Below are positions 3,807-34,493 of a DNA stretch of 64,000 nt, piece by piece. This DNA is from Escherichia phage GADS24. The position numbers were made by a program, and so were the translations under genes. The DNA lies in the sequence record OQ703618.1. One strand, given 5' to 3'. How positions within the stretch are numbered: position 1 is the first letter of the stretch; every line of letters starts with the position of its first letter. The notes under the pieces were generated by a model. It saw only the letters and a list, made by a program, of their open reading frames with translations, was not told the origin of the DNA and did no database searches.

Positions 3807-4907
3807 TTACGCTGTGAAGATTTTATCCCACATCGCAACAACTGCATCTCGGTTATACTTCTTCCATACTGCTTCAGCGCGTTTAACTCGAGCTTCGTAT
3901 GTGTCAGTGAATTCTAATACAGCTTTTGTGTAAAGCGCAACTACTTCTTTCTTAGGAGTAGAGGAATCAATTTCTACACGCACAGTATCTGGGTCGTATT
4001 CGAATGTCGCATGAGGATAATCCTTAAAAACTAACTGGATTACAGGGACACCTTTAGAGATGGCTTCAATAGAACTATTCTCTACTGTACCTGTGTCAGG
4101 ACACGTATTAATAAGTGCTTTAGCTGTTTTAAGACGTTCCATGATTTCACTGTGTGGAGCATCAATAATAACAGGATATTTAGCTGGTGGTGCCCATTTA
4201 CTAGGACAGTATCCTACACCATTTTCGCCTAGTGCTTTAATCGCTTCAAGAGCAACATCAGTACGACGCATTTTAGTGTCATAACGTTGTGCACTAATAA
4301 TCAAATCAGTTGCCGGGAGAACTTCTGGTTTTTCAGTCAAACAAATAACCGGATAATCTTCGGCTTCAAACAACGGATTTGCTCGCCAATAATCATAATC
4401 AATTTTGTCAGTCAGACCTGAAGTCATATAACAATATTTGCGTTCAAATTCACGGAAGGCTTTAGTAGGAGCATAACTCTTACCACCATTCTTATGAATT
4501 TGAATAGTCTGGTCCCAAATTTGAACAATGCCACGAGATACCGGTTCAAATGGTGTTGCCATAAAATTCTTATGAACTTTAGAGAGACCTGCGTCTTTAA
4601 TTGCCTGAACGGTTAGTTTAGTCGGTTCCATAGTAACAACAAAATCGTATTCATGTATGCCGGCTAGTTCGACAATCTTACGAGCCATAGTATAACTCAT
4701 ACCTAGACTGAATTTAGTCAGATGTCCAACAGGGTGGTGTGTAACTTTCCAGTCACCAAACGTGTCATTATCAAAGCCGATATAATCAATATCAGCACCG
4801 ATGGACACAAGATATTTCAACACATTTAAATGTACTGCTTCAAGACCACCTTGTACACGGTCAGGATTAAATGGGACTGCACGAGATGGGATAAACATAA
4901 CTTTCAT
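3807..4907 (-). CDS. GT-B fold glycosyltransferase (candidate DNA sugar transferase)
   Basis: 366 aa; C-terminal E-x-x-x-EA-x-x-KG-x-PVI motif typical of GT1/GT4 enzymes; inserted between rIIA.1 and topoisomerase. Confidence 0.6.
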   Translation of the reverse strand: MKVMFIPSRAVPFNPDRVQGGLEAVHLNVLKYLVSIGADIDYIGFDNDTFGDWKVTHHPVGHLTKFSLGMSYTMARKIVELAGIHEYDFVVTMEPTKLTVQAIKDAGLSKVHKNFMATPFEPVSRGIVQIWDQTIQIHKNGGKSYAPTKAFREFERKYCYMTSGLTDKIDYDYWRANPLFEAEDYPVICLTEKPEVLPATDLIISAQRYDTKMRRTDVALEAIKALGENGVGYCPSKWAPPAKYPVIIDAPHSEIMERLKTAKALINTCPDTGTVENSSIEAISKGVPVIQLVFKDYPHATFEYDPDTVRVEIDSSTPKKEVVALYTKAVLEFTDTYEARVKRAEAVWKKYNRDAVVAMWDKIFTA

Positions 4908-23925: not shown

Positions 23926-25090
23926 CGAAATCTTCCATTTCGTCAAGGTCGTTTTCTATATCTGCTGCAGAAGGAGCATCAGAAGTTTTAACCGGAACTT
24001 TAGTTGTTGCTTTGCAATTAATAAGGTCATTAACAGCGTCATCAACTTCTTTAATAGAAGAGATAGCACCTAGTTTATATTTAGTTTCAATTGCATCTCG
24101 GAAAGGTTTGTGTTTAAACAATGGTCCCCAGAATTCTACACAATCAGTAGCTTTAGCACGCCATGATTTTTCTTCACGAATCATTTCACCTGTTTCTTCG
24201 TCAAGGAATTCACGAGCATACCAACCAGCTTTAGGCTTAACCACAAAACCGATTTCAGTTGCCATTTCTAACAAGCCGCTGAATGGGTCAATACCGCCAT
24301 CAAAATTAACCGTGATTGGGAAAGTAGATTTCTCTTTAACTGTACGAGATTTTTCTGCTTTCAACGTGAAGTCATAACCGGTCAATTCTGTACCTTCTTT
24401 AACCTGACGTTTAGAGATAAAGAATACAGTGTTAGCAGAGTAAAGAATACCTGTACCACCACCCATAATCTCTTTAGGATATAGACCGCCGATTTCCATT
24501 GCTGTATGGTTGATTGCAACACACGGAATATCTTTAATAGTCAGATAAGGAGTCACAATGCGGAACAGAGATTTAAGTGCCTTAGCACGAGACATATCAC
24601 CTACAACTTTCTCGTTCAACGCATCTTCGGTTTCTTTCTTAGATGCAGTATTACCGATTGAATCGATAAAGATAATAACTTTATCGCCGCGTTCAATCGC
24701 GTCAAGCTGATTAGTCATATCAACTTTAAGTTGTTCTACAGATTGAATCGGAGTATGAACTACACGGTCCAAATCAACACCCATTGAACGGAAGTAAGAT
24801 TCTGAAGCACCGAATTCTGAGTCATAAAACAAACAGATTGCATCTTTATATTTCTTCATATATGCTGCAACCATGGTCAGTCCAAACAACGTTTTAAAGT
24901 GTTTAGAAGGAGCAGCAAAAATAGTTAAGCCTGATTGCAACCCAGCATTCAGTGCACCACCTAATGCAATATTCAACATCGGAATACGAGTAGGGACTTC
25001 ATCACGATTATTAAACAGCTTAGACTTAGTCAAGTCTGCAGTCATTTTAGAAGTAGAAGCTTTAATCAGACGAGATTTTAAATCAGACAT
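23918..25090 (-). CDS. uvsX: UvsX recombinase (RecA-like)
   Basis: 390 aa; RecA-fold P-loop; T4 UvsX-like. Confidence 0.9.
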   Translation of the reverse strand: MSDLKSRLIKASTSKMTADLTKSKLFNNRDEVPTRIPMLNIALGGALNAGLQSGLTIFAAPSKHFKTLFGLTMVAAYMKKYKDAICLFYDSEFGASESYFRSMGVDLDRVVHTPIQSVEQLKVDMTNQLDAIERGDKVIIFIDSIGNTASKKETEDALNEKVVGDMSRAKALKSLFRIVTPYLTIKDIPCVAINHTAMEIGGLYPKEIMGGGTGILYSANTVFFISKRQVKEGTELTGYDFTLKAEKSRTVKEKSTFPITVNFDGGIDPFSGLLEMATEIGFVVKPKAGWYAREFLDEETGEMIREEKSWRAKATDCVEFWGPLFKHKPFRDAIETKYKLGAISSIKEVDDAVNDLINCKATTKVPVKTSDAPSAADIENDLDEMEDFDE

Positions 25091-25182
25091 TGTATTTTTC
25101 CATAGGCATCATTATATTTTACTCATGTTTAAAAGATAAGACGATTATATACTAAGGGTTATACAGCGTTTAAAACTTTAAA

Positions 25183-25200
25183 CAGGCTCTTAACGAGCCC
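25183..25200 (-). terminator. weak hairpin terminator after kinase gene
   Basis: Stem ggctc/gagcc followed by T-rich tract on minus. Confidence 0.3.
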
Positions 25201-25738
25201 ATTTGATAATTTCTGTAATCAAATTATTACGTTCGCTTGCATTAAATCCTATAACTTTGTTAGCACCATCATGATTAAGTAATTGATATGTTTGGATTTT
25301 GTTATGAATTGCAAACTCTTCAAAATGTGAAATGACTGTATTAAAACCGAATGAAGACAAAGTAATAAGGTCGTCTTCAAAACTTTCAGTCATTTCGTTA
25401 CGTGTTAAAATAATTGTGAACACATCATGGTTTTGGCAAAGACGAACATAATCCTGTTCATAAACATCAAGAACCGAGTCCGCATCTTGTCGAATACGTC
25501 CATAAACCCAGTTACTAATATATCCACGGTCTAACAGATAAATCTTAGTAGGGTCTAAATAATTCAACATCGTTTCGAAACAGCCAACTTCATTTCGAGA
25601 CTTAACATCAAAACGTCCATCAACTGTTCGTTTAGGGAAATCAATTTTTACATATCTTTCACTAATTTCCATTATGTCATTAATGAAAGTTGTTTTACCA
25701 GCATTATCCGGGCCATCTACTAAAATAATTTTAGCCAT
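25190..25738 (-). CDS. P-loop nucleoside/nucleotide kinase-like protein
   Basis: 182 aa; Walker A GPDNAGKTT; LLDRGY lid-like motif. Confidence 0.55.
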   Translation of the reverse strand: MAKIILVDGPDNAGKTTFINDIMEISERYVKIDFPKRTVDGRFDVKSRNEVGCFETMLNYLDPTKIYLLDRGYISNWVYGRIRQDADSVLDVYEQDYVRLCQNHDVFTIILTRNEMTESFEDDLITLSSFGFNTVISHFEEFAIHNKIQTYQLLNHDGANKVIGFNASERNNLITEIIKWAR

Positions 25739-25739
25739 T

Positions 25740-26639
25740 TTATTCCTCGATTACGACATCTTCGTATTTAGGTATATTATACGGTGAAGAAATTAAAGCA
25801 TTAAAGTAGATGAACTCGCCAAGACCTGGATGGAATACTTCTTCAGGATTTTCGAAATATTGAATCTTCGGCCGTCCTTTAAGAATTTGATAGTACTCAG
25901 TTTTAGTTGGTTTAAAAATTCGAATCAGCGCTTCTTCAGGATACTTATTTCTATCGAAGCTATTATTTGGATCGGTTACATAAAGCGGTTGACCTAATTG
26001 AATTGCACATTCAACCACTTGTTCAAAACGATAGCACGGGTCACTAATTCGAAATGGATGAAAAATACCATCTAGATGAATAGGAGCCAAATCACCTACA
26101 AAACGCTGCATGATGGAAGGACGTATAACTTTCTGGGTTACGATAATCTTATTACCATCTGCACCAGCGTTAACCAGCACTTCCTTTTGACGTTCATTCA
26201 ACACAGTAGTTTGAAGTGAACGATTAACCGACAACATGTCGGTTTTTAAGAATTCGTCAATATAAAAACGTGGTTTATTAGGGTCTGCAGTGATATTGAA
26301 ATTGAATTCTACATCAAAAGCTCCGTCATATCCAGTGATATCTGTTATTAGAAAATCACAATCATAATAAGCAATTAATGAATCAACCACAAATTCATTT
26401 TCAGACCAGAAATATTTACGAGTGTTATACGCGTTATCTTTATACCATAACGGAACAAACTTAAATTCTGGGAAAAGACGTTCACATTCTTTAATATCAG
26501 ATGCATTACGTGGATATGTAATAACATCACCCGGATTAGCACGGTGCAAATGAAGTTGGAAGTTGCCATCCTTAAGGATAGCATACTCTCCAGTTTCATA
26601 AGACCGCATACTCAAGATAGGTACGCGGAAAATAGCCAT
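25740..26639 (-). CDS. putative glycosyltransferase (GT-B-like) at the T4 beta-gt locus
   Basis: 299 aa; C-terminal FEQVVECAIQLGQPLYVTD resembles GT-B donor-binding motif; position uvsX-42. Confidence 0.45.
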   Translation of the reverse strand: MAIFRVPILSMRSYETGEYAILKDGNFQLHLHRANPGDVITYPRNASDIKECERLFPEFKFVPLWYKDNAYNTRKYFWSENEFVVDSLIAYYDCDFLITDITGYDGAFDVEFNFNITADPNKPRFYIDEFLKTDMLSVNRSLQTTVLNERQKEVLVNAGADGNKIIVTQKVIRPSIMQRFVGDLAPIHLDGIFHPFRISDPCYRFEQVVECAIQLGQPLYVTDPNNSFDRNKYPEEALIRIFKPTKTEYYQILKGRPKIQYFENPEEVFHPGLGEFIYFNALISSPYNIPKYEDVVIEE

Positions 26640-27355
26640 TAGTCAAGGAATCCTTTAACATAATCAAAATCACGTTCAAACACATGGGCACTTACCATGG
26701 TATGAGTATAATCACCAACTTCTACACCACATTCGTTAGCGATATAATGAAGTAATTTTCCTTGGAGATAAAAATCCAACTGCATAACAACAGCACAGTT
26801 CTGAGAACGCATATGGCAGTGGGTATAAAGCTTACCATCACGAATATAATAAGTCACTGAGTCAGTACATGGATATTCAAGCGTTTCGTCCGAATCAAGC
26901 AAAGCCTGATCAGAACTTTCTAGAATTTGGAACACAACTCTTCGAGAGTTAGGTTTCTCTTTAAGTTCTTTGAGAAGAGCTGGTAACTGGGCCGCAATTC
27001 GTGGACCATAGAAAGTGTTGAAGTTTGCAGGCAAAGCATCTGATTTCGGTTTAGAAATAAATTTAGCAACGTTAGGATATGCCTTAAATGCTTCTTCTGC
27101 ATCAGTTCCGCCAGAAATCATAAATTTCCAGAAATCTTCGGCATATTCATAAGAGATGCGGTTAATACGTGGGTCGGTCATTTTGAATGATGATGGAGTG
27201 TCAACAACTACTGTCATAGACCCAATTTCATTACAACGTCCAATACGAGAATCAGTTACGAATTCCGGGTTTTCTAAAATCTCACGATTGACTGCTTTAA
27301 ATGCGGATTGAAAATCTGCGGCTTTAATATATTTCATTGTGTTATGTTTTCCCAT
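26639..27355 (-). CDS. 42: dCMP hydroxymethylase gp42 (thymidylate synthase fold)
   Basis: 238 aa; NSRR...YPCTDSV...HMRSQN motifs parallel T4 gp42. Confidence 0.8.
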   Translation of the reverse strand: MGKHNTMKYIKAADFQSAFKAVNREILENPEFVTDSRIGRCNEIGSMTVVVDTPSSFKMTDPRINRISYEYAEDFWKFMISGGTDAEEAFKAYPNVAKFISKPKSDALPANFNTFYGPRIAAQLPALLKELKEKPNSRRVVFQILESSDQALLDSDETLEYPCTDSVTYYIRDGKLYTHCHMRSQNCAVVMQLDFYLQGKLLHYIANECGVEVGDYTHTMVSAHVFERDFDYVKGFLD

Positions 27356-27396
27356 GTTTACCTCAATACAGTTATTATATACTCAATTCATAAAGC

Positions 27397-27636
27397 TTAT
27401 TTGAATTTCTTAGCGATGTTGATATAACGTAGAGCTTCGGCATCGATACTTCTAAGGACACTATGAAGGAATGCGTCGGCATAGTATTCTAGTTGAACAG
27501 GTTCTTTAATCGCTTTAGCCGCTTTAGTTTCAAACAGGCCCATAAGGGCCTTTTTAAGAATTTGTTCGTTGCTGGTAATTTTAATAGTCAAAATCTCTTC
27601 ATTAAGTTGGTGGTTAAAAGTTTTTCTAGAAATCAT
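27397..27636 (-). CDS. hypothetical protein
   Basis: 79-aa ORF. Confidence 0.4.
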   Translation of the reverse strand: MISRKTFNHQLNEEILTIKITSNEQILKKALMGLFETKAAKAIKEPVQLEYYADAFLHSVLRSIDAEALRYINIAKKFK

Positions 27637-28793
27637 TCCGGGTACCTCAAAGCGTCGTCAGAGTTAGTTATATCAATAATAGATATAGAATTTTCTGATA
27701 ACCCATTTTTAGATAACTGACGTTTATAATATCTTTCACAATATGTACACGTCGTCCCGCAGATTTCATTAGCACAATCGAAATCTGGATGTCTGAACCA
27801 CCTTTTTTCTAAAAAGCCGTCTAACAAAGAGGTTTCAATATTTACCGTATGTGAAAACTCGGTCTCATTTTCAAGAGTGAAAATGGTCTCTAAAGGCTTC
27901 CACAGTTCTAACAAATTACCTTCAAACTTTTCAGAAGCGTATGCTTCAAGAACTTTCAAAATGTAGTCTGTGCTACCTGTACGTCCTGAAACTTTGAATT
28001 GAGTGATACCAATATCATTATAAAGTTTCAAATCTTGTGGACGAACAAAACGAGTTCTCAACCAGTTAAATGGGTCTGTATCACGAGCTTTAATACAGTG
28101 CTGCATAGGATATCCATTTAAGGATTTAGCATCATCAGCTGTAACATCAGTACTATGGAAAATATAGCAAGAGTCACGATAGCTACAATGTGTTGTATAC
28201 CCTTTACCAGCATTAGAACAGAACTCATTTACAAGAACTTCAAATATTATATTGTTCTTATTGCAAAACTCTGCTGCACGCTTCAGGAAAGAAACTGAAC
28301 GGTTCTTATGAATTCCACAGCAGACCTTTTTGATATTATACTGGTCATGTAAGTATTTGATTTGAGTTACAGCATCGACATGTAAAATTGTTGAAACTTC
28401 AATCTCAATGTCTTTATTGACTTCACGAACAATTTCCATAACAACAGGGTTAGCGATAGTAATACGCCATACGCCTATTGACCAAAGATACTGAACATAA
28501 TCCTGAATAGCTTTCTTCTTCCACTCAACTAGTTCTCTTTTTGAACCGGGATTTATCGTGTTGAGTGTATAGTTAAAGCAAATACCTAATTCGTTACAAC
28601 GTTTAACGTAATCTTCTAACATCTTTTTGTCAACGTCAGGAAGCCTAAAATCAGGTCTGGCTGCTACAAAAGCCATTTCTCTTGTAGAGCCGTATACTTC
28701 GTTTATCAAGCTATTAGGATAAGTTTTATTGAGCTCTACGATTTTATCAAGAAGAGCTAAATCAAAATTCGTTCCGATTTTAAAAGTATTCAT
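27633..28793 (-). CDS. Cys-rich hypothetical enzyme in modification cluster
   Basis: ~386 aa from ATG preceded by A9 tract; multiple Cys clusters (CCGIH, CANEICGTTCTYCE). Confidence 0.5.
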   Translation of the reverse strand: MNTFKIGTNFDLALLDKIVELNKTYPNSLINEVYGSTREMAFVAARPDFRLPDVDKKMLEDYVKRCNELGICFNYTLNTINPGSKRELVEWKKKAIQDYVQYLWSIGVWRITIANPVVMEIVREVNKDIEIEVSTILHVDAVTQIKYLHDQYNIKKVCCGIHKNRSVSFLKRAAEFCNKNNIIFEVLVNEFCSNAGKGYTTHCSYRDSCYIFHSTDVTADDAKSLNGYPMQHCIKARDTDPFNWLRTRFVRPQDLKLYNDIGITQFKVSGRTGSTDYILKVLEAYASEKFEGNLLELWKPLETIFTLENETEFSHTVNIETSLLDGFLEKRWFRHPDFDCANEICGTTCTYCERYYKRQLSKNGLSENSISIIDITNSDDALRYPE

Positions 28794-28852
28794 TTTTTTT
28801 TTGCATCTCACGTTAATTGACGCGATGGTTTTTGCAGGTCTTACTTAAATTA

Positions 28853-29239
28853 TTATAGATTCGGTTTATATGATTTAAATGTTTCGAATTCGCCTTTATT
28901 CATAAGAGCTTTGAATTCGTCGGGACGCATAGCTTTGTCGTCGATAATCCAATCATATACTGGTTTATGTGTTAGCAAATTATGGTACTTCAAGCCAATG
29001 TTTGCCAAGTTCTGAATAAGACTTGGGAGAATGTCAATTGCTATACGACCAGGACCTACTGACTTCATACCGCGAGCAGTGTAAAGCGTTATGGTATGCC
29101 CTGCATCATACAGGGCATTAATGGCAGACACCATTTCGACGTCTGGTTTGAAGTTCACGTAATCACGATTGTTATTCCACTCTGTTATACAATCATCGAC
29201 ATCAAAACAAAGATTAAGCATGTTTTCTACACGGTGCAT
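28853..29239 (-). CDS. HAD-like phosphatase (small)
   Basis: FDVDDC motif (DxD) near N-terminus; start overlaps upstream stop (TAATG). Confidence 0.45.
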   Translation of the reverse strand: MHRVENMLNLCFDVDDCITEWNNNRDYVNFKPDVEMVSAINALYDAGHTITLYTARGMKSVGPGRIAIDILPSLIQNLANIGLKYHNLLTHKPVYDWIIDDKAMRPDEFKALMNKGEFETFKSYKPNL

Positions 29240-30924
29240 TAGATTCGTTCCCATTGATGAGTGATATCGCCACCGATTGGACGATAGGAAACACCAGTTT
29301 CTTTATCAGTTAGTACCCATTTACCAGGATTTTTTGTAATCAGAGTAGCCGTTACAGGTTCTGCCATGTCATAACTAATAGAGCCGTCCTGAAGTACACG
29401 GCCCATGTTACGTAATTGCTTAGTCAGAAGTTCCATACCTTTATAATATGCGGCTACCGCTTTAAGTGGATTATTCTTGAAATAACCACCTAATGCAATC
29501 CAGATAATTGCTACAGCCAAATGATGATACTCGTTAAATGAACTCATCTTTCCATATTTGTAAACTAATGGATTGATGTTAATAGTCACATTACAAGTTG
29601 TTTCATCAATAGTAAACTGTCCCCAGGTCGGATTAGCGTTGAATTCATCATAACCTGAAACAGCATAAAGCACTTTAGCTTCATCGTACAATTTTGGCCC
29701 GTAAATCTTGGTTTCGCCAAAATATCCACGAGGGTCGATAAACTTGACTTCGCCGTTATCAGTAATCATAGTATTACTGAAGTTCGGGTCACCGTGAATA
29801 ACAGAGTACTGTCCCTGAGAACGGTTATGATAACGAATAAGGTGTTCTAAAGCTTGTTTCAGCATTGGCTTCAGACGCCCAATCTTAGTGTAGTTCACAT
29901 GTGTGATTTTACCAAATGAATCAATCAATGGTTGAATACTTTCACAACGATCAATAACTTTCGTATAGAATTCTTTAGTGAAATCACGACGAACAGTTTC
30001 AGGACTTACAAAATAAGTGTCTGTGCTGAATTTCAGTGCATCTAAAATTGCATCAACAATTTGTGGACGAGCAAGACTCGATTTAGATTTAATATATTCA
30101 AATGCCGGCTTACCTTTAATGCGTTCCATTTCAAAGTTATTTTCATTAACAGAAACTAACTGAGGAACTGAATCTGATTTCACTTTAAGATACCATGAAA
30201 TCTCATCTTTCTGAAGAGCTCGTCCCTGTTCGGTTAATGCGAATTTAGTTACAGTTTCTTCACCAATTTCAACTGCATTAAAACTACGATTAAGTTCACG
30301 AACTTCATGAGCTTTTTCAAGTTTAGGCATATCACCTAAATCAATTAGATTCATAAGCTCTGATTTATTGAATGCGCCGCTGTAAAGGAATTCTACGAAA
30401 TCACGTCCTTTGCAGTATTCATGAATTTCCTCATCAGTAGAACCCATATAGAATTCCCAGTCTTTGAATTGATAAATTCCTACAACATTACCACCTGTTG
30501 AACCTACGTTAGTGATATTTTCACCGTCGAAATTATATCGACATTCGTCACCCTTAACATAGATTGCGTTAACATTCCAAGACCATGAACCAAAATCAGG
30601 AATAATATCACACCAGTTAACAATTACATTATGGCCGTCTAAATCTTTGTGTAATTTAGCAAGAGCATAAGCGGAACCATATGCTTCATCAACTGTACGA
30701 ATAGTCACATTGAACCCTTCTTGCTCACAATAAGCTCGAACAGTTTCAGCAAATTTTGAATGAACTACTACAATAATTTCATCTGCGCCAAGGTCAGAAT
30801 AAATTGTATACAAATTGCTCAGAATAGTGTCTTGTTTATAGTTAACAAGCACCTTAGGAATATGATGCGTTATTGGATACAAACGAGTTGCCAGTCCAGC
30901 ACCAAGAATAACAGCTTTTTTCAT
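29239..30924 (-). CDS. bifunctional sugar-1-phosphate nucleotidyltransferase / APH-like sugar kinase
   Basis: N-term GAGLATRLYPITHHIPKVL (G-x-G-T-R NTase); C-term HGDPNFSN and IDPRG (Brenner kinase motifs). Confidence 0.7.
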   Translation of the reverse strand: MKKAVILGAGLATRLYPITHHIPKVLVNYKQDTILSNLYTIYSDLGADEIIVVVHSKFAETVRAYCEQEGFNVTIRTVDEAYGSAYALAKLHKDLDGHNVIVNWCDIIPDFGSWSWNVNAIYVKGDECRYNFDGENITNVGSTGGNVVGIYQFKDWEFYMGSTDEEIHEYCKGRDFVEFLYSGAFNKSELMNLIDLGDMPKLEKAHEVRELNRSFNAVEIGEETVTKFALTEQGRALQKDEISWYLKVKSDSVPQLVSVNENNFEMERIKGKPAFEYIKSKSSLARPQIVDAILDALKFSTDTYFVSPETVRRDFTKEFYTKVIDRCESIQPLIDSFGKITHVNYTKIGRLKPMLKQALEHLIRYHNRSQGQYSVIHGDPNFSNTMITDNGEVKFIDPRGYFGETKIYGPKLYDEAKVLYAVSGYDEFNANPTWGQFTIDETTCNVTININPLVYKYGKMSSFNEYHHLAVAIIWIALGGYFKNNPLKAVAAYYKGMELLTKQLRNMGRVLQDGSISYDMAEPVTATLITKNPGKWVLTDKETGVSYRPIGGDITHQWERI

Positions 30925-30952
30925 GTTGTGGTCCTCATTGGTAAGTAGGAGT

Positions 30953-30977
30953 ATTGTACACTATTCTAGTTAAAGCA
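30953..30977 (-). promoter_or_regulatory. T4-type middle promoter (MotA box TGCTTTA, 12-bp spacer, -10 TACAAT)
   Basis: Minus-strand motif ~30 nt upstream of NTase-kinase ATG. Confidence 0.45.
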
Positions 30978-31099
30978 TTCATACTTTGCTTGTAGTCCAA
31001 TCATAATCCATCCAATTACAAGTGTTGGAATCATTACTGGAGCCGTTAAGCTCCAGTAGATAGTCATGACAAGCATCAATAGTAAAAGTCCTATTGTTA
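30956..31099 (-). CDS. small hydrophobic protein (47 aa)
   Basis: Hand-translated MKAITIGLLLLMLVMTIYW...; overlaps middle promoter. Confidence 0.25.
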
Positions 31100-31105
31100 T
31101 TGCTT

Positions 31106-31741
31106 TCATTGTTCGCCTCGTAACATGGCACCTAGTGCACCACCAGGGTGGAACTTAAGGAAGTCATTAGAGGTAAATCCACGTTCAGACGAAAGGTTGA
31201 TAGCGAACGTATCGATAAGCGCTAACAACAATGTAGTAGACATTGTCGGAGCTAAAGAGTTCTCGTCAACTTCTACCGCGATGCCTGTACAGAAAGAGTA
31301 ATCAAAAAGGGCTTCATTTTCTTGCGGAATGTCAGGGTTACAATGTAACAGAATCTGTTTAACCTGAGGACGAATCATACGAAGATGTTTAGCAACACCT
31401 ATCATTTCTTCGGTTTTACCAGAACGACTAATATGAATCAACACATCATTAGGCGCAATGAATCCTGCATCACCGTGAGAATAATGCCCAGTGTTCAAGT
31501 ACATACTCGGGATACCGAGTGAAGCAAATGTCTCAGAAGCTTTAGTTGCAATATTAGCATTCTTACCAACACCTGTAATAATTACTCGGCTTTCATAATT
31601 ACTAAGTCCTGGGCGTCGAAGAGTTTCTAGAATAGCATTATAACGAGCAGGGTTTTGACTAATTACTTTGGCCATAGTAGCCAAAGAAGAAGCTTGTTTT
31701 ACGATTGCGTCAATAGCGATAGTAATAGGAGTAGTTTTCAT
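31106..31741 (-). CDS. SIS-domain sugar phosphate isomerase (KdsD/GutQ-type arabinose-5-phosphate isomerase-like, no CBS domains)
   Basis: 211 aa; GVGKNANIATKASETFASLGIPS...HGD...ISRSGKTEE matches SIS signature. Confidence 0.7.
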   Translation of the reverse strand: MKTTPITIAIDAIVKQASSLATMAKVISQNPARYNAILETLRRPGLSNYESRVIITGVGKNANIATKASETFASLGIPSMYLNTGHYSHGDAGFIAPNDVLIHISRSGKTEEMIGVAKHLRMIRPQVKQILLHCNPDIPQENEALFDYSFCTGIAVEVDENSLAPTMSTTLLLALIDTFAINLSSERGFTSNDFLKFHPGGALGAMLRGEQ

Positions 31742-31781
31742 ATTTCTCTCATTTAATTAGTTTACCGTCCATGGTATTATA

Positions 31782-34493
31782 TCAAAAATCGAACATATCG
31801 AACAGAGATGCTTTCTTCTCGTAATCGAGTTTCGCCGCTGATGTGAATCCTTCAAGTGGTTTAATAAATGTCTTCTCAAGGAGAACAGTGTAGTCCATCC
31901 AATGAAGTACGTCGTCTTTAATTAAATCTGTGATTTCAGTACCAGAAGGCCATGCGATACATTTATCACCGAATGGGTTTCCTTCACGTAAAGGCAGAAC
32001 ATATACTTTTTCACCTTCTACAACTTGCGGTGCATCGATATTACCTTTGATAGCTCTGTTATATGTCAGAATTCCACGAATATGGAACGGACATTTAGGA
32101 CCAGGGAATCCACCAACGTCATATTTAGCAATGTTATTCGCAGAAGATACCGACGCGATGCTAATATAATTCAATTGACGGAATTCTTTTTCAAACTCTT
32201 TAAAATATTCTTGTAATGATTCTTCACCTTCTTGAAGCATACGGCGAATACATTCTTTAAGAGCTTTCTGTACTGCTTTAGGGGTCGAAGATTTCTGAGT
32301 CTCTAGACCCATGATTTTGAGTTTAGGCTCAGCGTAACGAGTACCTTCCATATCCCACACGTTTAATGCATAACGTTTCTTACCAGTCCAGAATCCACCA
32401 ATACCTTTAGAACCGAGTGGAGGACCAGCGATAGCTTCTCGGTCCATGAACATTAAGTGTTGTTTATTGTTCATGTATTCACACATTTCACGGAAACCTC
32501 TATCAATAGCTGGTTCCATACGTTCACGTGCAAACTTATCTAAGAAGTCTACCCAATGGTTGGTATCACGGAATTTAGATTCACCAACCTTATCAATAAT
32601 TTTATCAGCAGATACGTAAATAGAGTCTGTATCACCATAAAGAACGAAAGCTTCACCTTCTGTGCCACAAACTTCATTCAGATATTCATTAACTTTACGT
32701 TCAATCCACTGTAAAGCCATTTGCCCGAATGTTGTGATTGCAGTAGCATTACGCAAATCATAATAACGGAACCAAACGTTGCCAAGTGCACCATAAAGTG
32801 AGTTGATAAGCAATTTACGGTTAATTTGGGCAGTCATACCTGCAACTTCAGTACGTTGAGCTCTAAACAACATTTCATTAAGAGATTTAGCAGACAACTT
32901 TTTAATCTTTTCTTTAATCTCATCACTGAAGTCGAAACGATAATCAACATCTAACGGTTCGTCAACAGAAAGATTAGGATTATGCAATGCCTCTTTAATT
33001 ATTTCACCGTTACGTTGAGCCGCAAGCATATAACCTTTATGTTCTTTACGTTGATTAAAGACTTTAGTGATTTCAGTTGGAACAACACCGTCACGGTCTT
33101 TATAATACATCATGCCGTTAGGAGAACAACTGTACACATCAGAAGGTCGTTCAGCAACAGCGTTAATATAATCATGCAATGGAGCTACTTTAAACGTTCC
33201 TGCTATTGTTTCTGGGCTAATATTCACTTGGCGAATAATACTTGGATACAGAGATGTGAGGTCGAAGCTCATCACATATTTGTATCGATTTGGAATAGGT
33301 TCCTTAACAAAAGCGCCAGGATAAGGTTGAACCGGATGAGAACGACCTTGTGGAATCACCTTGTTCTGCTCTTTAAGGCTATTAAAAATAATAGCATCCC
33401 ATGTTTTAATAGGGCTAAACACAGATTGAATCTGTATCTTAGCATAATAACCCATGTCCAAGCTCAAGTTAATGAACTGACGTTTACCATCAATTTGCAA
33501 TACACGATACACGTCGATAATGTTATAAGAAATATATCGTTGGTGATTGCTTTCACGAAGCTTAGAAATAGGGCCGTCATATTTCAGTTTACCAACGTTC
33601 AATTCAAATTCTGAAATGTAATCCAGAGAATACGACGGTTGATTAGTAAAAGAGAATTTTTTGTAAAGGTCAATGTAATCAAGAACAGAGATACCGAACA
33701 ATGTAATGATTTCACGAGAACCATACATGTTTTCGATAACTTTAACACGTGTTTTACGATGCGGTGATAAACGTTTCGCAGTAGATTCGCCAAAAATATT
33801 CTTGATTCGGTTATACACATATGGAATATCAAATGACTCAACGTTCCATCCAGTCAAAATGACAGGAGTTTTCTGTTGCCAGAAGTTGAGATATTCCATC
33901 AACAATTCTTTTTCATTATCGAACGGCATATAAACGATTTTGTCGATAATTTCGGATGGAACTTCATCACCACCTTGTTCTTGAAGCTTAGCAGCAATTT
34001 CGATAGACCATTCTTCCACATTACCATATGGAGAATTCAAAAGGTCAAATACGTAGAACCTGTCGTCAATTGAGTCATAATGGGTGATAGCATCAATTGG
34101 ATGTTTTGCTTGTGACGGCTCAGGGAACCCGTCTGGAGATGTTACTTCGATGTCGAAGTTAGCCACACGAATTTTTGTATGGTCGTATTTGATTTCATAG
34201 TTATAAGTGTCAGACAAATACGCCAATTTGAAATCGTCCATGCCAAGTGCTTCAAGTCCGATATCTTCCATGCGTTTAATCCATTGGGAGGCATCACGCA
34301 TATTGGCGAACAACTTACGAGTACACGGCTTACCGTAGATATCGAAATATTTCGTAGCCTGACTTTCCGGACAATGAGCAAACAGTGATGGTTTATATTC
34401 TACTTCACGAGTACGTTCACGGCCATTAGAATCGATGTAACGTTCAAAAATTGAATCACCAATCTGTTCAACCGTTAAGTAAAATTCTTTCAT
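31782..34493 (-). CDS. 43: DNA polymerase gp43 (family B, RB69-type, 903 aa)
   Basis: Exo motifs FDIEV, YGDTDS polymerase motif; recognised as RB69-like gp43. Confidence 0.95.
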   Translation of the reverse strand: MKEFYLTVEQIGDSIFERYIDSNGRERTREVEYKPSLFAHCPESQATKYFDIYGKPCTRKLFANMRDASQWIKRMEDIGLEALGMDDFKLAYLSDTYNYEIKYDHTKIRVANFDIEVTSPDGFPEPSQAKHPIDAITHYDSIDDRFYVFDLLNSPYGNVEEWSIEIAAKLQEQGGDEVPSEIIDKIVYMPFDNEKELLMEYLNFWQQKTPVILTGWNVESFDIPYVYNRIKNIFGESTAKRLSPHRKTRVKVIENMYGSREIITLFGISVLDYIDLYKKFSFTNQPSYSLDYISEFELNVGKLKYDGPISKLRESNHQRYISYNIIDVYRVLQIDGKRQFINLSLDMGYYAKIQIQSVFSPIKTWDAIIFNSLKEQNKVIPQGRSHPVQPYPGAFVKEPIPNRYKYVMSFDLTSLYPSIIRQVNISPETIAGTFKVAPLHDYINAVAERPSDVYSCSPNGMMYYKDRDGVVPTEITKVFNQRKEHKGYMLAAQRNGEIIKEALHNPNLSVDEPLDVDYRFDFSDEIKEKIKKLSAKSLNEMLFRAQRTEVAGMTAQINRKLLINSLYGALGNVWFRYYDLRNATAITTFGQMALQWIERKVNEYLNEVCGTEGEAFVLYGDTDSIYVSADKIIDKVGESKFRDTNHWVDFLDKFARERMEPAIDRGFREMCEYMNNKQHLMFMDREAIAGPPLGSKGIGGFWTGKKRYALNVWDMEGTRYAEPKLKIMGLETQKSSTPKAVQKALKECIRRMLQEGEESLQEYFKEFEKEFRQLNYISIASVSSANNIAKYDVGGFPGPKCPFHIRGILTYNRAIKGNIDAPQVVEGEKVYVLPLREGNPFGDKCIAWPSGTEITDLIKDDVLHWMDYTVLLEKTFIKPLEGFTSAAKLDYEKKASLFDMFDF

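Follow-up and report, generated by a model that had tools for sequence, protein, structure and literature searches.

Gene content of the locus

The stretch of DNA analyzed here, 64,000 nucleotides of Escherichia phage GADS24 (sequence record OQ703618.1; hereinafter, the window), is from a Mosigvirus about 98% identical to RB69; the 2.3 kb around the gene of interest is 97.6-98.5% identical to Mosigvirus genomes, RB69 included. From pol43 to gene 41, all genes are located on the minus strand, in the order pol43, SIS isomerase, 561-aa bifunctional enzyme, HAD phosphatase, U32 protein, 79-aa ORF, TS homolog, 299-aa ORF, kinase, uvsX, 40 and 41 (Table 1), compared to the order 43, imm.1, imm, 42, b-gt, segA and uvsX in T4. 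Comparison of the two maps bears out the observation, made in an earlier note on this DNA, that the slot of the T4 beta-glucosyltransferase gene (beta-gt) is occupied by a P-loop kinase and a 299-aa protein.

Table 1. Features of the locus, with the second glycosyltransferase gene of the window
Feature	Coordinates	Strand	Length (aa)	RB69 counterpart	Basis
Predicted GT-B-fold transferase	25740..26639	-	299	gp46:47 (window gene intact)	ATG-to-stop ORF of 299 codons
Thymidylate-kinase-like P-loop protein	25190..25738	-	182	gp45	PHROG 761 'thymidylate kinase', E 2e-45
TS homolog, predicted 5-hydroxy-dCMP synthase	26639..27355	-	238		Pfam Thymidylat_synt; PDB 9iqc
ORF	27397..27636	-	79	ORF049c	PHROG 8601; no Pfam match
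Peptidase-U32-family protein	27633..28811	-	392	gp50	Pfam PF01136, E 7.7e-11
HAD-type phosphatase, AfhF-like	28853..29254	-	133	gp51	NCBIfam 'capsule biosynthesis phosphatase', E 4e-13; PHROG 1238
Bifunctional sugar kinase and sugar-1-phosphate uridylyltransferase, AfhE-like	29239..30924	-	561	gp52:53	Pfam and literature
SIS-domain arabinose-5-phosphate isomerase	31106..31741	-	211	gp55	Pfam SIS, E 2.6e-10; RB69 annotation; literature
Second glycosyltransferase	3807..4907	-	366	gp3/ORF003c	phmmer to 9iqz_H, E 3.6e-250

The 299-aa ORF that the earlier note had singled out, quoting from it the peptide FEQVVECAIQLGQPLYVTD (residues 205-223), is a real gene because it is full-length in 340 of the 348 phage records that contain the transferase gene, matches PHROG 3891 ('unknown function', E 1e-156), and differs from the RB69 gene by 19 synonymous and 5 non-synonymous codons; judging from these sequences, the gene evolves under purifying selection. 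A Shine-Dalgarno-like AAGGA lies 9-13 nt 5' of the start codon, which overlaps the stop of the upstream TS-homolog gene (TAATG); one base separates the stop of the 299-aa ORF from the ATG of the kinase gene (TAAaATG), and the latter is translationally coupled to the transferase gene. In a promoter and terminator scan of positions 24900..31900, sites were no more numerous than in shuffled sequence.

In the RB69 reference record (NC_004928; L001 5640-6540 in our locus set), a single additional T, placed at gene position 545 by alignment with the window, breaks the gene up into ORF047c and ORF046c, so the window carries the intact form, as do nearly all relatives. The protein is orthologous to RB69 gp46:47, DLP3 gp79 and Thanatos TH1_063, from which it is set apart only by the split of the RB69 ORF; TH1_063 is a true ortholog at 48% identity (E 1e-84). 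The 299-aa protein is the 'arabinosyltransferase 1' that has been described before in RB69-like phages, a role that was assigned in papers of 2025-2026 and is already known; in the case of RB69 gp46:47, the label derives from structure prediction alone (NAR 2026). Several GenBank records give the orthologs a different name, 'RNA polymerase binding protein' (hits H66, H152, H157 and H158, as well as the 303-aa ortholog of phage LC53, L006 9001-9912, which is encoded in the same gene cluster); this name finds no support in the present analysis and looks like a propagated misannotation.

Among the neighbors, the 561-aa protein matches Pfam NTP_transferase at residues 3-99 and, weakly, kinase families at about residues 308-409. 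The 366-aa protein, encoded far from the cluster, is nearly identical to, and hence the same protein as, the crystallized 9iqz of phage HY126. The 392-aa U32 protein contains two four-cysteine clusters, CX10CX5CX23C and the C-terminal CX4CX3CX2C, which are retained in five orthologs. In phage LC53 (L006 6796-8306), the small ORF between the U32 gene and the TS homolog encodes a type II chorismate mutase (Pfam CM_2, E 1.7e-11); in the window, this position is occupied by the 79-aa ORF. U32 proteins such as UbiU/V, TrhP and RlhA catalyze hydroxylations that require prephenate but no oxygen, the product of RlhA being 5-hydroxycytidine in rRNA. Given this activity of the U32 relatives and the identity of the small ORF in LC53, the pair of U32 protein and chorismate mutase could, by analogy, provide an anaerobic route to 5-hydroxycytosine, backing up the O2- and flavin-dependent TS homolog. 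In three distant loci (L055 8909-10048, L056 5783-6862 and L063 11024-12124), a transferase of the family is encoded near a U32 gene and the sequence examined contains no TS homolog; the observations on the U32 protein also take in L058 36927-38063. RB69 gp50 has been labeled 'sugar or heterocycle reductase' (NAR 2026), and we found no link between phage U32 proteins and prephenate in the open literature.

The adjacent TS homolog and the acceptor base

The TS homolog is nearly identical to the protein crystallized from phage HY126 (PDB 9iqc, E 1.8e-162). When aligned with E. coli ThyA and T4 gp42, it retains the catalytic C146 and displays three replacements, D169N, N177D and L143E; around D169, the window protein reads HMRSQNCAVVMQLD and the E. 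coli protein reads YQRSCDVFLGLPFN. It has been shown that RB69 gp48 and DLP3 gp80 make 5-hydroxy-dCMP, with the oxygen coming from O2 and with the involvement of flavin, that this synthase activity is marked by D169N, and that RB69 DNA contains mono- and di-arabinosylated 5-hydroxycytosine in which the sugar is ether-linked to C5 (NAR 2026); the older account of RB69 DNA as carrying arabinosyl-hmC has since been corrected. Because the TS homolog that adjoins the transferase gene carries the D169N signature, the acceptor base is predicted to be 5-hydroxycytosine, not hydroxymethylcytosine, and the neighbor is not gene 42. The base chemistry thus differs from that in T4, and so does the sugar.

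In 50 of the 51 readable TS homologs at the related loci, the D169 position is occupied by Asn and the N177 position by Asp. The single exception, with Ser at D169, is located beside a transferase-family member that is distant, at 26% identity (L053 3615-4304), so that its product is not predictable from the published signature.

Predicted fold, conserved motifs and comparison with known transferases

Searches of the curated glycosyltransferase families yield no sequence-level match for the 299-aa protein: there is no family at E<=0.1 in Pfam and NCBIfam, phmmer against PDB detects no glycosyltransferase, and the profile of 69 homologs detects none in PDB at E<=10. The transferase family itself is small: at E<=1e-3, it accounts for only 231 of 1.84 billion representatives. 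The glycosyltransferase fold of the protein is visible only through structure prediction, the check proposed in the earlier note, and the prediction does relate the protein to glycosyltransferases: the model consists of two Rossmann-like beta/alpha/beta domains facing a cleft, that is, the GT-B fold. In a Foldseek comparison with PDB, the best matches are UDP-GlcNAc 2-epimerases (7vza, E 3e-6), and the best fold matches also include sucrose-phosphate synthase (SPS), MshA and BshA. The protein is therefore a GT-B-fold enzyme that makes up a separate family; in shape, it comes nearest to the retaining GT4 enzymes, and it does not derive from beta-gt.

The blocks conserved in the family are SMRSYETG, DGN, Y(G)xNAxxTR, NFNIT, TTVLNxxQ, FxPFRISD, TDPN, KxxYY and FHPGLxEF. 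The invariant F193-x-P195-F196-R197, D200, K246 and H270-P271-G272, together with the conserved but not invariant E275, occupy the secondary-structure positions where nucleotide-sugar binding by the C-terminal domain of a GT-B protein would call for a basic residue after C-beta1 and for His or an acidic residue where C-alpha4 begins. From their secondary-structure positions in the model, the candidates for donor binding are R197, K246, H270 and E275, and those for the acceptor side are M11-R12-S13, R33 and R74. The EX7E motif is absent: the equivalent region reads FENPEEVFHPGLGEF, in which H270, P271, G272 and E275 are conserved and there is no conserved pair of Glu residues at the 7-residue spacing. 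The C-terminal motif that the earlier note had offered as GT-B evidence does not serve as a signature of this fold, being located in the model on the first helix and the second strand of the C-terminal domain, away from the usual EX7E position. Among the nine segments compared, its residues 205-221 show the lowest conservation (mean top-residue frequency of 0.36 vs 0.54 for the whole protein), and only T222-D223-P224-N225 is conserved.

Compared to the GT4-type retaining GT-B transferases (sucrose-phosphate synthase tll1590, BshA, MshA and PimA), the 299-aa protein shows 7-12% identity, is shorter (299 aa vs 340-400), and matches neither Pfam Glycos_transf_1 nor Glyco_trans_4; with no HMM score above the cut-off for CAZy GT4 or Glycos_transf_1 and no EX7E, it falls outside these families. 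What it has in common with the T4 beta-glucosyltransferase (GT63) is the slot, directly 3' of the TS homolog and 5' of uvsX, the GT-B superfold, and the role of placing a sugar onto a modified cytosine. Nevertheless, there is no detectable homology between the two proteins (BLASTP E 3.5, hhalign probability 0.1%), and the possibility of a diverged beta-gt was accordingly rejected. The 299-aa protein thus resembles the T4 alpha-gt and beta-gt in purpose and the GT4 enzymes in shape, and belongs to neither group by sequence. The proposal of the earlier note that a non-T4 glycosyltransferase has replaced beta-gt stands with regard to the non-T4 transferase fold, but not with regard to the identity of the neighbor as gene 42, and it overlooked the difference in the base itself.

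The hydroxymethylcytosine-type Serratia phage PS2 (L062 3217-6925), in which the TS homolog keeps Asp at the D169 position, has, immediately behind gene 42, a gene for a 308-aa homolog of the transferase family (hhalign 99.2%); beta-alpha-gt and beta-gt come next. The 308-aa homolog has lost nearly all of the family-invariant motifs and may be a relic or a repurposed protein. The PS2 arrangement shows that the slot after the TS homolog hosted the 299-aa family even in a phage that carries beta-gt.

Distribution of the family, gene linkage and the number of sugars

The family is represented in 348 phage records, with hosts including Escherichia, Acinetobacter, Klebsiella, Serratia, Yersinia and Proteus, among others. 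Across the 55 loci that we compared, from both phage genomes and metagenomes, the gene that immediately precedes the transferase encodes a TS homolog in about 50, and the gene that immediately follows it encodes the kinase in most; some genera have the kinase gene relocated upstream of the TS homolog. The same TS-transferase-kinase triplet is found on metagenomic phage contigs of 122-356 kb, with 35-38% identity, and in Rhizobium phage P9VFCI (Pootjesviridae; hhalign 99.2%), where the TS homolog carries D169N. For RL38J1, a phage of the same family as P9VFCI, the base-proximal sugar has been reported to be galactose. Because the sugar evidently varies, 'first-sugar transferase for 5-hydroxycytosine' is the more fitting description of the family. 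In one metagenomic clade (L034-L047), the triplet occurs without arabinose genes in the sequence examined (up to 8 kb on each side). On distant metagenomic phage contigs (L004 6739-9594 and the start of L003), the D169N TS homolog is immediately preceded by a gene of the Flavodoxin_2 type (NAD(P)H:flavin/quinone reductase-like), with no arabinose genes within 8 kb; this arrangement is consistent with a flavin supply devoted to the hydroxylase and with the use of a different sugar in place of arabinose.

The second glycosyltransferase encoded in the window is unrelated in sequence to the 299-aa protein (hhalign probability 0.3%). This gp3-type transferase (RB69 gp3, HY126 9iqz), for which the proposed substrate is already arabinosylated DNA, is found only in Mosigvirus (one copy) and in Acinetobacter phages (two copies), and is confined to phages with two or three arabinoses, reported or predicted. 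One arabinose has been reported for LC53 and Thanatos, two for RB69 and Bas46, and three for DLP3. The additional arabinoses are thus matched by the number of gp3-type genes (0, 1 or 2), and the mono-arabinose phages possess only the 299-aa family, which is therefore left as the first-sugar enzyme. From this match between phyletic distribution and sugar number, we infer that the 299-aa family transfers arabinofuranose to the 5-OH.

Fusions of the transferase with other domains

Two types of fusions were identified in metagenomes, with L063 6001-7725 and L064 733-2343 among their locations. In eight representatives (P0125, P0131, P0135, P0138, P0149, P0151, P0181 and P0209), an N-terminal HAD-like phosphatase domain precedes the transferase. 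Eight other proteins (P0204, P0213, P0214, P0216, P0223, P0224, P0241 and P0243) combine the transferase with a TMK-like kinase: in seven, the kinase is C-terminal and contains the motif EGFDRIGKD[ST], and in one, it precedes the transferase. One kinase fusion is a continuous ORF on a phage contig, beside the genes for SIS, the bifunctional enzyme and U32. The kinase portion of the fusions is detected by Pfam, hhalign and a Walker-A-like motif, but not, at E<=1e-3, by the HMM built from the kinases of T4-like loci. The kinase fusions speak for joint action of the transferase and the P-loop protein next to it.

The proposed pathway and its alternatives

In the pathway that we propose, the TS homolog would convert dCMP to 5-hydroxy-dCMP, as shown for the RB69 ortholog, which would then be phosphorylated by kinases and polymerized into the phage DNA. 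UDP-arabinofuranose (UDP-Araf) would be supplied jointly by the SIS isomerase, the bifunctional kinase/uridylyltransferase and the HAD phosphatase, for which the proposed reaction is the conversion of arabinofuranose 1,5-bisphosphate to the 1-phosphate. The 299-aa GT-B enzyme would transfer arabinofuranose from UDP-Araf to the 5-OH of 5-hydroxycytosine, most likely on DNA after replication, and the 366-aa transferase would then add the second arabinose. The linkage of the base-proximal sugar has been reported to be alpha, which fits the predicted retaining, GT4-like shape, so the alpha linkage would probably be formed through a retaining, GT4-like mechanism. Overall, with a probability of about 0.78, the 299-aa protein is the first-sugar transferase of the arabinosyl-5-hydroxycytosine pathway of RB69-like phages. 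For glycosyl transfer by the orthologs, the accessible literature offers only negative or indirect results, which count against this interpretation, as do the missing sequence-level match to the curated glycosyltransferase families and the acidic pI.

Within the first-sugar-transferase interpretation, we favor DNA over the mononucleotide as the acceptor by roughly three to one. To our knowledge, every phage DNA glycosylation characterized so far, T4 providing the precedent, is post-replicative, and the later arabinose additions have been shown to occur on DNA. The opposite order of events, in which the transferase arabinosylates 5-hydroxy-dCMP before replication, the TMK-like kinase phosphorylates the resulting arabinosyl-5-hydroxy-dCMP and the polymerase incorporates the glycosylated nucleotide, seems unlikely; if it holds, the transferase and the kinase would be a two-step unit making arabinosyl-5-hydroxy-dCDP. 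The translational coupling of the kinase gene and its position next after the transferase in most of the 55 loci are in line with this order, as is the presence of the adjacent kinase even in phages with a separate annotated dNMP kinase (RB69 gp159, P9VFCI gp118). RB69 gp159, a gp1-type dNMP kinase, has been shown to phosphorylate 5-hydroxy-dCMP, and expression of the synthase together with gp159 puts unglycosylated 5-hydroxycytosine into DNA, so that a polymerase route for the unglycosylated base does exist. The kinase fusions, in both domain orders, point to the mononucleotide as well but could reflect complex formation only. When tested singly, the DLP3 transferases yielded no arabinosylation of 5-hydroxycytosine-containing DNA with UDP-Araf or UDP-Arap, and the authors cannot tell the mononucleotide from DNA as the first-step acceptor (NAR 2026). 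The best fold matches SPS, MshA and BshA use small phosphorylated or acidic acceptors, and the transferase family is acidic (pI 5.07 for the 299-aa protein, with a family median of 5.14), unlike T4 beta-gt (9.05), which counts weakly against action on DNA. However, both the ranking of fold matches and pI are weak indicators; given that the T4 alpha-gt, at 6.11, is below 7 as well, pI was dropped as a test of DNA binding.

The remaining alternatives deny the protein a transferase function altogether. It is highly improbable that the 299-aa protein makes the activated sugar, as a UDP-pentose pyrophosphorylase, even though this is the activity reported for its Thanatos ortholog: TH1_063, itself identified as a glycosyltransferase-fold protein, was found in vitro, by LC-MS, to form UDP-xylose from UTP and xylose-1-phosphate, and with UDP-xylose it left plasmid DNA, dCMP, dCTP and cytosine unmodified (Thanatos paper). 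The orthology with TH1_063 lends weight to this assignment, but the predicted fold is GT-B, not that of a nucleotidyltransferase, and the NTP_transferase domain is found not in this protein but in the 561-aa neighbor, the counterpart of which in HY126, AfhE, has been reported to hold UDP-arabinose pyrophosphorylase activity. As far as the accessible part of the report goes, the TH1_063 assay was performed with the His-tagged protein from E. coli, leaving a co-purifying host uridylyltransferase as a possible source of the activity. Furthermore, under the pyrophosphorylase assignment, the mono-arabinosylating phages would be left without a candidate transferase. Least probable of all is a role as a UDP-sugar epimerase with the GT-B fold, or as some other enzyme that is not a transferase. 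The epimerase option is prompted by the Foldseek ranking alone, with the UDP-GlcNAc 2-epimerases on top; the 299-aa protein neither matches Pfam Epimerase_2 nor is structurally closer to the epimerases than to transferases, and the pathway has no need for such an enzyme.

Implications

The transferase-kinase fusions sharpen the question whether the acceptor is DNA or the mononucleotide. Published work credits arabinosyl-5-hydroxycytosine with shielding RB69-like phages from restriction enzymes, from the DNA glycosylase Brig1 and from type I CRISPR-Cas. Given that RB69-like phages are common candidates for phage therapy, naming the enzyme that adds the base-proximal sugar, most likely the 299-aa protein, matters for engineering and sequencing these phages.
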